A DNA stretch of 64,000 nucleotides from Phycisphaerales bacterium (GCA_965228265.1 OZ245804.1:207298-271297), one strand, 5' to 3'. Numbered from the stretch's first letter, positions 8,709 to 48,001 are shown. The notes: generated by a model not told the origin, from the sequence alone. Translations and numbers: made by a program.

Positions 8709-8750
8709 TACCCCCCGAAGGACTCGAACCTTCAACCCGCTGATTAAGAG
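8709..8750 (-). repeat. Direct repeat DR1: 42-bp copy of the 3' half (anticodon loop to discriminator) of tRNA-Lys(CTT) - left att site
   Basis: Sequence ta ccccccgaag gactcgaacc ttcaacccgc tgattaagag at 8709-8750 is identical to 47929-47970 inside the intact tRNA-Lys gene. Confidence 0.85.
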
Positions 8751-9060
8751 CCCGACTGAAAACCGCACTGACGCGATCAGAAGCGGGAGTTTCGATGAGC
8801 GCGGAAGTGGATCTGTGGGCGAACGCGACGCACAGCCGGATCGACTCGAAATGCTGGTCGAAATCGCCCGCGTGATCAGCCGGCTTCCGCCGGCGGAACG
8901 CCATGTTCTTGGGTCGATGCTATCGCTTGTCTTGCCTGACGGTGACGCTTCGCGGTGAGCATCTCTCGATGCTGCGGATCTGGTCACGCTCTCAAGTCGA
9001 CTCCGTCCAGATCCGCTCTTCGATCCCGCATTGCTCGCATGCTCGTAGGTATTTAGGGCC
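8751..9060. repeat. Island-end ~320-bp repeat (copy B) abutting DR1
   Basis: Homologous to 6250-6560 (see copy A). Confidence 0.5.
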
Positions 9061-10068
9061 TTCTTTGCGAATCCGAACGACCTTGCCGCGGTGTCCCTCC
9101 GCCCCGCACGCTGAGCAGTTCGTCGGCATCGAGGCGTTGGTCCCGCAGCTCTGGCACTTCCAGTAGTAGCCGTACTTACCCCAATGGGCGGATAGATCGG
9201 TGCCGCCGCAGCCTTTGCATGCCGCACCAGCCGCAGGGACCGCGGCCGGCTCTGACTTCGGTGCGGGCGGTGGAATTTCAACCGCGACGGTTGCTGCGGT
9301 TTGCGTGTCAAGCTTTGGTCGGACATTGGCCTCATGGCGTGCCGCGAGGAACTCCGCAACAAGCGTGACTTCCTCGGATTTCATGGACCACAATCCATAA
9401 TCGCCGGTTGACATATTCGTCAGCTTGCTTGCCGCCTTGTGCTTTCTGAATTCCTCTCTGATCTTGGTTGGGACGAGATCGGCCTTGCTGACATATGTGT
9501 GGAACGGCTTTTGGGGTTCTTTCCAATGGTTGATCCGGCGGATCTTTCCCCGATCCGAGATCGCCACGATGATCTGGATGGGCATGTTGCCAAAGCCACG
9601 GTGCTCTGTGCCGGCCATGATTTTGGCGAGTGTTCGGAAGCCGGGCGGCATTTTGCCGAGCAACTCTTCTCGGTGCCGCTGGAGAAACACGCGCAGGAAC
9701 TCCCCCTGGCGGCGTGCCTGTTGGATCGGCGACGGAAAACCCAGCTCCTGACCACGGTACCGACGCGTCCACTCATCACCGCCTGCTCCGTCGTCGCGTA
9801 CGGCCACTTCGTCCGTGACGGACTTACTCTCCACGATGAATGCACCCCACCGGTGAAGGATGAGGTGATCGATCTGACAGACACCTGGCCGGTCGTCGAG
9901 CTCGGGCTGATCCGGATCGACGAGACGCAGGTCGTTGAGGACGAGCAAGCCTGCCTCGGAAGCGAAATCTCGGTGCAGATAGAAGGCCATCTGCCGCTCA
10001 GCCTCGACGCCCGCGCGAAGCTTCGGATCTGACGACACTGACTGCGATTGGGTTTGCTTGACGATCAT
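8992..10068 (-). CDS. NERD (nuclease-related domain) protein with C-terminal Cys-rich zinc-ribbon region
   Basis: NERD core reads GVEAERQMAFYLHRDF...LVLNDLRLVD...QIDHLILHRWGAFIVESK. C-terminus has multiple CxxC pairs (CKGCGG...CQSCG...CSACG...CEQCG). Start taken at MIVKQ (10068), conserved in the paralogous fragment at 42608. Confidence 0.7.
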   Translation of the reverse strand: MIVKQTQSQSVSSDPKLRAGVEAERQMAFYLHRDFASEAGLLVLNDLRLVDPDQPELDDRPGVCQIDHLILHRWGAFIVESKSVTDEVAVRDDGAGGDEWTRRYRGQELGFPSPIQQARRQGEFLRVFLQRHREELLGKMPPGFRTLAKIMAGTEHRGFGNMPIQIIVAISDRGKIRRINHWKEPQKPFHTYVSKADLVPTKIREEFRKHKAASKLTNMSTGDYGLWSMKSEEVTLVAEFLAARHEANVRPKLDTQTAATVAVEIPPPAPKSEPAAVPAAGAACKGCGGTDLSAHWGKYGYYWKCQSCGTNASMPTNCSACGAEGHRGKVVRIRKEGPKYLRACEQCGIEERIWTEST

Positions 10069-10116
10069 CACATCTTCCCGGTTGTGAGTCACTACAAGTC
10101 CGTGTTCGTATACATT

Positions 10117-46131: not shown

Positions 46132-47843
46132 AACGATTGCGATTCGACGAACTCATTCTCTTCTCACAGAAGGAAAGGAGCGCAAGAAGGCTCAGCCTCC
46201 ATCCGACCGCAACGGTAATCAAGGGCGACAATGACACTGGCAAATCTTCGCTGGTGAAATCGCTTTATTGGGCCCTCGGTGCCAAACCTCCAGTCATTCC
46301 TCCAAACTGGGAACAATCTGGAGTTGTCACCTCATTACGCTTTCGTGTGAGTGATGTTCAATACCGCGTGATACGTAATGGCGACCGATTTAGTTTCTTT
46401 GACGGCGACGACCAACTGATCGAATCCTTCGTGAGTATCACTCATGGTGTGAGTCCATTCATTGCAAAGTTGTTTGACTTTCGCTTGCAGCTACCGGGCA
46501 AAAGTGCAAGAGCAGAAACGCAAGCAACGCCTGCCTTCTTGTTCTTGCCGTTCTACATCGATCAGGATTCGGGATGGGGCAATGAGTGGCTTCGGTCCTT
46601 CTCCAGGCTGCAGCAGTTTCGATTCAGACGTGAAGATGTACTGAGGTTCCACTTTGGAATCAGACCATCGGATTACTATCTTGCAAAAATTCGGCTTGCC
46701 GAAATTGTGAGCAAGGCGAACGAGGTGCGACGTGAACGAGAGATTCTCGACGGCCTTTTGGAGGATCTGCACAAGGAACTCCGGGAAGTTGATTTTACTG
46801 TCGACATTGATTTCTTCAAGGAAGAAGTTACCCAACTCCTAGAACGTTCCAACCGGCTACAGCAGGAGGAAGAACAGCTACGCGATCGAATGGCGATCGC
46901 ATATGGCGATTTGTCAGCAGTGCGTGACCAATTACGCATCACGAAACACGCGCTAGCGGAACTTCAAGCCGACCGGAAGTTTGCGAGTGAGCTAGAGGGT
47001 GACTCAGTTCAATGCCCAACGTGTCATGCGGAGTATGCGAACGATTTTGCCGAGCGATTCTCGATCGCGGTGGACGAAGATCGTTGCCTCGGACTACTCA
47101 GTGAACTCGACCAGCAGAAACGCAAGGCGGAGGAAGCTTACCAGTCAGCTATGCAAATGACGTCCAGCCTTCGCGCGGAATCCGAAGAAGTAGAGGCCCT
47201 GCTGAGATCAAAGAAAGAGAACTTGGTTTTACACGATGTGATCAAGAGTGAAGGCCGACGAGAGATGCTTGGGCTGCTTCGTCGGCAACTGTCTGCACTT
47301 CATGAGCAACTCGGGGTACTCGATTCCAGAGAAGCCGAAACACGCAAGAAGATGAAGGAATACGACGACCCCAAGCGAAAGAAAGAGATCGTTGGCTACT
47401 ACAATAATCAAGCAGCGCGAATGCTCGATAAGCTTGACGTGAAAAACGTTCATGCTTCGGCATATAAATCGCTTGGAGCGCCGATTAAGGATTCTGGCAG
47501 CGACGTATCACGGGCGGTGCTCGCATTCGTTTTGGCTAGCCTCCGGACAATCGACAAATATTCTAAATGCGCTATGTGCCCACTCGTGATCGACTCGCCA
47601 AGACAGCATGATCAAGATGACCATAGCTTCAAGTTAATCCGCGAAGCAATCCGAGACGAGCGTCCGGATCAGTGCCAGTTAATCCTCGCGCTTACCGACG
47701 ATGAAGGAACGGACTTTGGCGGCGAAATTGTTGAGTTGGATAGGAAGCGGAAGGTGCTTGACACCGAAGAGTTCGCTGAGGTGTCAGAGGAAATTCGTCC
47801 TCTAATCGAGCGGTCCCTCATGTCTAACGAAGATGAAGATTAG
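46128..47843 (+). CDS. Lamassu LmuB-like SMC/Rad50-like ABC ATPase (DUF3732-type)
   Basis: Walker A GDNDTGKSSL, long coiled coil with a central CPTCH (CxxC hook-like), C-terminal LVIDSPRQHDQDD Walker B/D-loop-like. ATGA overlap with the upstream gene. Confidence 0.6.
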   Translation: MKRLRFDELILFSQKERSARRLSLHPTATVIKGDNDTGKSSLVKSLYWALGAKPPVIPPNWEQSGVVTSLRFRVSDVQYRVIRNGDRFSFFDGDDQLIESFVSITHGVSPFIAKLFDFRLQLPGKSARAETQATPAFLFLPFYIDQDSGWGNEWLRSFSRLQQFRFRREDVLRFHFGIRPSDYYLAKIRLAEIVSKANEVRREREILDGLLEDLHKELREVDFTVDIDFFKEEVTQLLERSNRLQQEEEQLRDRMAIAYGDLSAVRDQLRITKHALAELQADRKFASELEGDSVQCPTCHAEYANDFAERFSIAVDEDRCLGLLSELDQQKRKAEEAYQSAMQMTSSLRAESEEVEALLRSKKENLVLHDVIKSEGRREMLGLLRRQLSALHEQLGVLDSREAETRKKMKEYDDPKRKKEIVGYYNNQAARMLDKLDVKNVHASAYKSLGAPIKDSGSDVSRAVLAFVLASLRTIDKYSKCAMCPLVIDSPRQHDQDDHSFKLIREAIRDERPDQCQLILALTDDEGTDFGGEIVELDRKRKVLDTEEFAEVSEEIRPLIERSLMSNEDED

Positions 47844-47928
47844 AGCCGCTAACGAGTGGGGTGCCGTGACACAATCCGTTGGACCGGCGTTGGACAGTGC
47901 CTCGCAGTCCGGTAAAACCTTCTGAAAA

Positions 47929-48001
47929 TACCCCCCGAAGGACTCGAACCTTCAACCCGCTGATTAAGAGTCAGCTGCTCTACCGATTGAGCTAGGGAGG
48001 C
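47929..48001 (-). tRNA. tRNA-Lys (anticodon CTT) - intact att site of the island
   Basis: Acceptor GCCTCCC/GGGGGGT (two G-U pairs), D arm GCTCAATCGGTAGAGC, anticodon arm GCTGA-CTCTTAA-TCAGC, T arm GAAGG-TTCGAGT-CCTTC, discriminator A. Confidence 0.85.

Follow-up and report, generated by a model that had tools for sequence, protein, structure and literature searches.

Islands inserted into tRNA genes by P4-like tyrosine integrases share a recognizable structure: the target is the 3′ half of the tRNA gene, the tRNA itself stays intact, a repeat of the target marks the far end, genomes without the island have a precise empty site, and the cargo is accessory. Integrase subfamilies are also said to prefer particular sublocations within tRNA genes, a finding reportedly made by Williams in 2002. 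The 64,000-nucleotide stretch analyzed here (hereafter, the window), from a Phycisphaerales bacterium (GCA_965228265.1, OZ245804.1:207298-271297), contains a segment of this structure beside tRNA-Lys(CTT), at 8751-47927, and we put at about 80% the probability that it is a decayed, accreted, strain-specific defence island of 39.2 kb, resembling a cis-mobilizable element (CIME), in a marine member of the Phycisphaerales (Planctomycetota). In its insertion into the 3′ part of an intact tRNA gene, its far repeat and its empty site it matches a textbook tRNA-integrated island, whereas its composition is clearly deviant only in one cassette (Lamassu) and the integrase is missing: relatives carry an integrase next to the tRNA at the same site, whereas the window contains no integrase, excisionase or integrase pseudogene.

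CIMEs have been defined, together with a three-step scheme in which integration is followed by decay and then by accretion in tandem (PMC5704250); the elements so described are ICESt1-related or otherwise streptococcal and include composites at tRNA-Lys. As in those elements, the locus has kept attachment (att) sequences of both the attL and the attR type, its integration genes are gone, and it appears to be one of two decayed elements in a row, separated by an internal att copy. Unlike them, neither the window nor the related integrase-bearing loci show conjugation or mobilization genes, and the host is a planctomycete rather than a firmicute. Judged on gene content, the island is best called a CIME-like remnant, for which cis-mobilization is putative and descent from an integrative and conjugative or an integrative and mobilizable element is unsupported. 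Defence systems are reported to be pervasive on integrated elements (PMC10201445). In keeping with defence islands, a type IV enzyme, McrBC, a type I restriction-modification (R-M) locus with PDC-S21 and HEC-07, and Lamassu are clustered here, and in keeping with defence hotspots the cargo at the same site differs elsewhere, being an AbiE cassette in one genome (L003) and a Panacea/MazF-like pair in another (L020). The island departs from this pattern in that ~14 kb of it, comprising the rtc operon and genes for a radical SAM enzyme, an extracytoplasmic function (ECF) sigma factor and a kinase, has no recognizable defence role.

Repeats and empty allele at tRNA-Lys(CTT)

Because the tRNA-Lys gene lies on the minus strand, the repeats show its 3′ half in reverse complement, the island is situated downstream of the gene, and the copy at 8709 is the far boundary. 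Exactly two perfect copies of the 42-mer TACCCCCCGAAGGACTCGAACCTTCAACCCGCTGATTAAGAG, the plus-strand reading of 42 nt of tRNA-Lys from the discriminator base to the anticodon loop, are present in the window (8709-8750 and 47929-47970), both oriented alike, and 100 shuffles yielded no match. The identity of this outer pair reaches 45 nt with one mismatch (8706-8750 against 47926-47970). A third, shorter copy, the middle repeat, includes the flanking sequence TGAAAAT from beyond the tRNA end, and no such match is expected by chance. The geometry is that expected of integration into a tRNA 3′ end. An earlier reading of the window, made from the sequence alone (the sequence-only reading), had proposed that direct repeats of the tRNA-Lys 3′ half bound the island, and the exact identity of the outer pair over 42 of 42 positions, with none expected by chance, bears this out. 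Two of its positions need adjustment: the intact tRNA-Lys(CTT), given as 47929-48001, is placed by ARAGORN and Rfam at 47928-48002 on the minus strand, and the middle copy, which is real (26 of 27 positions), starts at 28045 instead of 28046 and is thus 1 nt longer.

Contigs with an empty site were found by way of PlsX, which is encoded just right of the tRNA and is identical in many public contigs; the protein is 100% identical in 32 protein-database blocks, meaning that many conspecific contigs are present. Among the 10 places listed, BLASTN showed an empty site in 8 (L001, L002, L004 and L006-L010). These independent contigs, all conspecific with the window, derive from Tara Oceans, further marine assemblies and metagenome-assembled genomes (MAGs) that differ in sample and assembler, and their gene order runs from TetR, CMD, isochorismatase, NmrA and AraC through a single tRNA-Lys to rpmF-plsX-fabH. 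The alignment of the left flank stops at 8750 and that of the right flank starts at 47926, with a 45-bp overlap between the two, and the flanks are 96-98% identical to the window at the nucleotide level (96.4% left, 98.2% right). A further contig (L005) breaks exactly at the repeat. Since 8750 is joined directly to 47926 in conspecifics, the intervening 39.2 kb are a strain-specific insertion, that is, a presence/absence polymorphism within one species. The empty tRNA-Lys(CTT) site in relatives that the sequence-only reading had anticipated is present in these eight contigs, which join ~8750 to ~47926 via a single repeat copy, and its description of a composite, integrase-less island inserted in the tRNA-Lys(CTT) 3′ half agrees with the repeats, the empty site and the integrase family found at the same site in relatives. 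Its remark that the elements look fixed holds at most for self-mobility, as the locus is polymorphic in the population and the empty allele predominates among the retrieved contigs.

No tyrosine or serine recombinase was found in the window by Pfam searches of all main open reading frames (ORFs) or by NCBIfam searches of the unassigned ORFs, and none by Pfam in stop-masked six-frame translations of the gaps at 27027-28367 and 44204-45003, coding regions not having been scanned in six frames. The family integrase of the relatives, used as a tblastn query, matched only tRNA-derived residues of the window. The absence of recombinases claimed earlier is thus upheld by Pfam, NCBIfam and tblastn alike, with the addition of a truncated IS3-family transposase fragment (Pfam HTH_Tnp_1, E = 6.6e-15, frame 3 of 44204-45003). 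This insertion sequence (IS) remnant cuts off a second PLD-helicase copy at 44259 and is the only mobility trace in the window. Relaxase and type IV secretion domains were absent from the window's Pfam hits, and the main ORFs gave no Pfam match to phage structural or packaging genes or to conjugation genes; a scan of IMG/VR did not find the att 42-mer, which lends no support to a phage origin.

An integrase family and other occupants at the same tRNA

The 42-mer is contained in 41 genome stretches, all of them from Phycisphaerales or Planctomycetota MAGs, and the tRNA-Lys-rpmF-plsX arrangement together with an identical 42-nt tRNA half is common to at least 38 Phycisphaerales species. A tyrosine integrase gene adjoins the tRNA 3′ end with its C-terminal tail at many of these loci. 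The ORF at 3610-5211 of L032 matches Pfam Phage_integrase (1.6e-16), contains HxxR...Y motifs and runs into the tRNA. With the L032 protein as query, tblastn detected a full-length integrase in L014, L032, L035, L036 and L054, and only C-terminal stubs in at least six loci (L016, L039, L040, L048, L049 and L053). Bare repeats occur as well. A 47-bp tRNA copy without an intact tRNA around it is present in L027 and L034; between this repeat and the tRNA, L034 carries a 3.3-kb integrase-less arsenic-resistance island. In L039 a 47-nt copy of the tRNA end, with one mismatch, lies 211 bp from the tRNA with an integrase stub between them, and in L027 another integrase tail adjoins the partial tRNA copy on its outer side, an arrangement that indicates a putative tandem. 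The presence of intact integrases, stubs and bare repeats among relatives shows that integrase decay after integration is common at this tRNA-Lys site, which displays every stage from the intact element through the integrase stub to the bare repeat pair.

Homology between the window and these loci extends to the element itself. The ~70 nt just inside the distal repeat (8751-8817) are ~80% identical to sequence inside the L034 and L027 repeats. Genes for the PLD-helicase and the NERD protein stand directly beside tRNA-Lys in L048, behind an integrase stub, and are 77.6% identical at the nucleotide level to window 13245-9001; in L049, a NERD gene lies ~0.7 kb from the tRNA behind a half-length integrase remnant. 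Site-specific integration is therefore supported by a tyrosine integrase family at the same site, by the 47-bp repeats and by the homologous distal end in relatives.

The 12 nt immediately outside the repeat in the window (8697-8708) and left of the tRNA in the empty-site contig L001 (CCGAACAGAAGT / ...GAAA) are found in occupied and empty alleles, and they resemble the last codons of the L032 integrase tail (CCAAACAGAAAGT). They may be the scar of an earlier occupant, or part of the recognized site.

Different cargo occupies the site in other genomes. L003, in which PlsX is identical to that of the window and the DNA from the tRNA onward is 98% identical, is a conspecific or near-conspecific MAG contig, and its occupant is an AbiEi/AbiEii pair; L020 comes from a more distant genome. 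The window (44641-44787) and L003 (1012-1158) share a 147-bp segment that is 97% identical and has sharp borders on both sides, after which each continues with a different low-GC defence cassette, Lamassu in the window and AbiE in L003, running to the tRNA. This configuration hints at a possible exchange of cassettes between fixed flanks. We rejected the idea that the 147-bp segment is the 5′ end of a lost integrase, since homology between L003 and L032 stops before the segment and the segment lies inside the IS3 remnant. Exact-sequence look-ups of the long form of RtcB, RtcA, LmuB and HsdM revealed no second copy of the island, and metagenome scans gave no match for the middle junction or for its adjoining ~95-nt terminator element beside a tRNA end.

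The locus represents a population-validated, tRNA-targeted defence island in the Phycisphaerales, a group with little-described mobile elements, and identifies tRNA-Lys(CTT) beside rpmF-plsX as an order-wide hotspot together with a tyrosine integrase family that uses it. Island finders that depend on an integrase would miss these 39 kb. To the accretion-and-decay model it adds nothing conceptually new; it is an object of an ordinary kind, and the unusual rtc operon described below is the more promising lead.

Layers of the island, a proposed history and its alternatives

The sequence-only reading had divided the segment into two serially inserted islands at the middle repeat. This scheme is a fair first approximation but too simple in view of a truncated NERD/PLD-helicase copy, the IS3 remnant and Lamassu in the right half. 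The layers are a block with NERD, type IV, McrBC and type I R-M genes; the truncated NERD/PLD-helicase module; a 14-kb rtc/radical-SAM/sigma-kinase block; and the IS3 remnant with the low-GC Lamassu cassette (Table 1). Lamassu has a GC content of 0.46-0.50, compared with 0.63-0.66 in the flanks, and is the only layer of clearly foreign composition. The second NERD/PLD-helicase copy has lost sequence on either side and is separated from the middle repeat by 14 kb, and the module of which it is a copy marks the distal end of the left block; the most economical reading would be two related elements in tandem, each composed of repeat, small ORF, NERD gene and PLD-helicase gene, with the 14.3-kb rtc/kinase block looking like an insertion into the second.

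The ~95-nt element next to the middle repeat bears on the order of these events. The same element lies directly after an intact tRNA-Lys in L003 (3432-3526) and L020 (4903-4995), at 87-89% identity, which far exceeds that of the neighbouring coding DNA (in L003 and L020, coding flanks are ~72% identical or the cargo differs). A state consisting of the left block, the 95-nt element and an intact tRNA plausibly existed before the right half arrived, as suggested by this position in L003 and L020. Possibly it represents, in a second element family, the end nearest the tRNA; alternatively it may serve as a landmark for recombination.

From these data we infer the following order of events. An element carrying its tyrosine integrase gene beside the tRNA would have recombined at the segment from the anticodon loop to the 3′ end, with an att core like the ~47 bp of the relatives; integration would have produced a second copy of the tRNA segment (8709-8750), the tRNA being restored from the copy that the element brought with it. 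A second, related element would then have become accreted there, with the 27-nt middle repeat and the second NERD/PLD-helicase module as its traces, and the integrase genes would subsequently have been lost. Later, the block at 28072-42416 (14.3 kb) would have replaced ~1.15 kb of the proximal element, namely what remained of the repeat together with the small ORF and the C-terminal part of NERD; the remainder of the proximal helicase gene would have been lost to an IS3 insertion accompanied by a deletion, and the Lamassu cassette may then have come to fill the space up to the tRNA. Gain or loss would now require an integrase provided in trans, a crossover between the 42-bp repeats, or homologous exchange through the conserved flanks.

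Several observations weigh against this account. The window retains no integrase remnant of any kind; what ties it, putatively, to the integrase family is a common target, the repeat and homology at the distal end. The outer pair spans 42 nt (45 with one mismatch) and not 47 as in relatives, and the middle repeat has only 27 nt, 7 of them outside the tRNA; the 47-bp family does not explain the middle repeat unless a later deletion or a second type of integrase is assumed. Apart from Lamassu, the island is close to its flanks in composition (GC 0.61 against 0.63-0.65; GC at third codon positions 0.70-0.76 against 0.82-0.85), which suggests donors from the same high-GC gene pool. Separate mobility of the island's parts is undocumented, no second copy having been found. 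Finally, the NERD/PLD-helicase genes beside the same tRNA in another genus (L048) mean that part of the island could be old and the empty allele a deletion.

Three alternatives propose another order or direction of events and otherwise agree with the preferred account. The one that survives best, which we regard as a tentative possibility, is that two discrete elements were inserted in sequence, island I (8751-28044) first and island II (28072-47927) second, and that both later lost their integrases; island I would have used the anticodon-loop core, and island II a crossover in the T-arm/acceptor part that left the 27-nt repeat. The middle repeat indeed lies on the ~95-nt terminator element that adjoins intact tRNA-Lys in L003 and L020, which is the expected pre-insertion state, and its 27-nt identity, TGAAAAT flank included, is not due to chance. 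Island II, however, is not coherent as a single element: 14 kb away from the middle repeat, it holds a truncated NERD/PLD-helicase module of a type that marks island I's distal end, it also has the IS3 remnant and a compositionally foreign cassette, and none of the 41 genome loci contains an element with a 20-27-nt core at tRNA-Lys.

It is also conceivable, though doubtful, that the composite was assembled in another Phycisphaerales lineage and entered in one step, by homologous recombination in the flanks (tRNA-Lys/plsX and AraC) or with an integrase acting in trans. Flank divergence is not raised beside the island (96.4% identity on the left and 98.2% on the right), and neither protein look-ups nor metagenome scans turned up a donor with the composite, yet the long homologous arms that such an event calls for do exist, in the form of the synteny and the shared 42-nt half in at least 38 species. 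Cassette exchange would be expected to produce what the window and L003 show, a common 147-bp segment with sharp borders and, beyond it, low-GC cassettes that differ, and transfer of a whole CIME-ICE tandem has been documented in other bacteria (PMC5704250).

That the island or its NERD/PLD-helicase core is ancestral, the window showing the old state and the empty allele having arisen by deletion (through recombination between the 42-45-bp repeats or integrase-mediated excision), seems unlikely to us. The NERD/PLD-helicase genes beside tRNA-Lys in another genus (L048) have diverged about as far as the core flanks, with 77.6% identity against 67-79% for plsX and fab genes; L039 provides an example of near-complete internal deletion between repeats; and the 12 nt at 8697-8708, resembling the L032 integrase tail in the empty allele, could be an occupancy scar. 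Against this, the empty allele predominates (8 of the 10 conspecific places listed), the GC content of Lamassu is clearly foreign, nothing nearly identical to the rtc block turned up in a database rich in conspecific contigs, and L003 has a different occupant at the same locus. The last alternative, that the repeats stem from recent local duplication or an assembly artefact and are not att sites, gains something from the degenerate copy of the distal end at 6225-6535, a sign of some local copying or rearrangement, and is effectively excluded, because the repeat is precisely the tRNA 3′ half, the same structure of repeat and integrase recurs in unrelated MAGs, and the empty-site contigs, assembled with k = 127-141, span the 45-bp repeat, such that a collapse is impossible at that k.

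The rtc operon, gene content and flanks

RNA-repair operons of the rsr-Y RNA-rtcBA type have been described (PMC7790460, PMC4201824), and tRNA arrays co-regulated with rtcB are known in cyanobacteria (PMC8421152). The rtc module of the window resembles the Salmonella-type rsr-Y RNA-rtcBA/RtcR operon in its divergent rtcR, a sigma54-type promoter, a first gene, tRNA-like RNAs, rtcB and rtcA; it differs in having an SPFH/Band-7 gene in place of Ro60, as does the homologous module of L012 (7584-10000; window 30877-33396, minus strand), and in having four to five tRNA-type genes. Rfam detected no YrlA at threshold in the window. At the corresponding places, closer relatives carry Ro60, YrlA Y RNAs, tRNA-Pro(TGG) and tRNA-Arg(ACG) (L058, 4392-5000; L059, 4242-5000), and this canonical arrangement indicates that the window's module is a variant of rsr-Y RNA-rtcBA with SPFH instead of Ro60.

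The promoter, TGGCACGCTTTCTGCA (33396-33382, minus strand), lies exactly where the homology with L012 begins and is conserved there; the motif alone is not significant (2 hits against 4 expected) and draws weight only from this position and the conservation in L012. Next comes a leader of ~370 nt whose conservation in L012 clearly surpasses that of the adjacent genes (66-77% at the nucleotide level); the alignment taken whole, with a long L012-specific tail in it, has a mean column identity of 73%. The leader contains one tRNA-like gene and two further T-arm-like motifs, the latter recognized by reading of the sequence. After the SPFH gene come three to four tRNA-type genes and then rtcB; these tRNA-type genes differ from their aligned L012 counterparts at only a few positions. 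A long variable arm is the norm for bacterial tRNA-Leu, whereas the genes at 31216-31289 and 33083-33155 (minus strand), called as tRNA-Leu with anticodons TAG and GAG, are 73-74 nt long with the short variable region of a class-I body. The L012 counterpart of the gene at 33083-33155 has the anticodon GAT and a different acceptor stem. The two 'Leu' genes may be tRNA mimics rather than decoding tRNAs.

The sequence-only reading had counted four tRNAs in this part of the island, which are present, ARAGORN and Rfam raising the number to five tRNA-type genes (30935-31289 and 33083-33155), and had thought the part possibly old and domesticated. That view is contradicted by its location inside the segment missing from conspecifics and by its best RtcB relative, which is 94% identical in amino acids and 82% in nucleotides, belongs to another species (contig L011) and has genes downstream of rtcA unlike those of the window. 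For the same reason, given the many conspecific contigs in the database, we rejected, as matters stand, a translocation of essential core DNA as the origin of the rtc/tRNA cluster. All top RtcB hits are from Phycisphaerales, and the module is accordingly classed, by sequence similarity, as of Phycisphaerales type. In L012 (around 3996-5435) it lies beside tRNA-Ser(CGA) and a 388-aa gene with Recombinase and Zn_ribbon_recom domains, such that it may be island-borne there too. On present evidence, the absence from conspecifics, the distant best match and the L012 setting suggest that the rtc/tRNA segment behaves as accessory, transferable DNA.

A further proposal, which we consider quite unlikely as a whole, is that the rtc block is a mobile variant of the Ro60/Y-RNA/RtcBA operon in which the ~370-nt leader with its three T-arm-like modules and the three to four tRNA-type genes, including the class-I 'Leu' bodies, replace Y RNAs and serve as co-transcribed tRNA mimics that act as sentinels or decoys for anticodon nucleases; the products of cleavage would switch on RtcR, and RtcB would reseal both the mimics and damaged tRNAs. 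If this is true, an rtc block on a defence island would represent RNA-damage-sensing immunity or counter-toxin cargo.

The heavy load of defence genes noted in the sequence-only reading was recovered with PADLOC (mREase_IV, PDC-S21, HEC-07, LmuA and LmuB) and Pfam (McrBC and type I R-M subunits). The type IV enzyme contains the Pfam domains PLDc_2, ResIII, Helicase_C and DUF3427, and its true start is probably near 10285. Pfam matches in the type I R-M locus are N6_Mtase (7e-102), Methylase_S, DUF4917 (1.6e-69), HSDR_N/SWI2_SNF2 and YgjP-like (3.7e-55), and PADLOC assigned PDC-S21 (2e-111) and HEC-07 (3e-125); these two, the former being the DUF4917 gene, are candidate defence genes located between hsdS and hsdR (20217-22996). 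LmuA (8e-78) and LmuB (3e-181) are full-length matches to their PADLOC profiles. The 490-aa protein encoded at 36424-37896 belongs to no family by Pfam, NCBIfam or PADLOC.

Table 1. Coordinates of the tRNA, repeats, genes and other features of the island, in window positions
Feature	Position	Strand	Basis or remarks
Distal direct repeat (attR-type)	8709-8750	minus	Copy of tRNA-Lys(CTT), anticodon loop to 3′ end; 42/42 exact against 47929-47970
Conserved distal end of the element family, with a possible small ORF reading inward	8751-8991	plus	~80% to L034/L027 (8751-8817); no Pfam hit
NERD-domain nuclease-like gene	8992-10266	minus	Pfam NERD, E = 6.7e-14; homologues beside tRNA-Lys in L048, L049
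Type IV methyl-directed restriction enzyme (PLD nuclease, SF2 helicase, DUF3427)	10048-13245	plus	PADLOC mREase_IV PDLC03659, E = 3e-237
McrB-type AAA_5 GTPase (McrBC)	13351-15117	plus	Pfam AAA_5 6e-23
McrC (McrBC)	15068-16318	plus	Pfam McrBC 3e-53
Type I R-M locus	16837-27026	plus	HsdS fragment, HsdM, HsdS, DUF4917/PDC-S21, HEC-07, HsdR, YgjP-like metallopeptidase
~95-nt conserved element	27958-28044	minus	Predicted intrinsic terminator hairpin ACGGCCC/GGGCCGU with U run; ~60 conserved nt
Middle repeat	28045-28071	minus	Last 20 nt of tRNA and 7-nt downstream flank; 26/27 against 47923-47949
rtc RNA-repair module	28368-35138	mixed	Pfam, ARAGORN, Rfam; same module in L012/L013
RtcA	28368-29387	minus	
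RtcB	29380-30876	minus	
Four tRNA-type genes	30935-31289	minus	
SPFH protein	31335-32966	minus	
Conserved leader with fifth tRNA-like gene (33083-33155) and sigma54-type promoter	32967-33396	minus	
RtcR	33522-35138	plus	
B12-binding radical SAM enzyme, 490-aa protein, ECF sigma factor, Ser/Thr kinase with TPR repeats	35288-42372	plus	Pfam, NCBIfam
Truncated second NERD/PLD-helicase module	42418-44258	mixed	73-83% nt identity to 9878-11721
NERD N-terminal stub	42417-42716	minus	
PLD-helicase pseudogene	42824-44203	plus	83% aa identity to residues 80-508 of the full-length enzyme
IS3-family insertion sequence remnant	44259-44787	plus	Left end TGACCTGCCCC..., orfA with premature stop, start of orfB
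Lamassu	45004-47843	plus	LmuA (Cap4-type nuclease) 45004-46131; LmuB (SMC-like ATPase) 46128-47843
Intact tRNA-Lys(CTT)	47928-48002	minus	ARAGORN; Rfam tRNA 67.9 bits; 3′ 42-45 nt form the proximal repeat (attL-type)

The degenerate copy of the distal island end in the left flank (6225-6535) is 76-82% identical to 8736-9046 and lies 2.5 kb further left, beyond the core genes NmrA and AraC. It takes in ~15 nt from the inner side of the tRNA-derived repeat as well as the 3′ end of NERD, and is located inside a segment (4197-6699; ECF sigma factor, DoxX, fatty-acid hydroxylase) in place of which the empty-site contigs have other genes (L001, 6251-7434). L001 also has a ~0.6-kb gene (17805-18400; 192 aa) that is absent from the window at 56276-56290, a small strain indel. 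In the right flank, a gene at 60331-61698, unrelated to the island, encodes a repeat-domain protein with six tandem repeats of 159 bp (53 aa).

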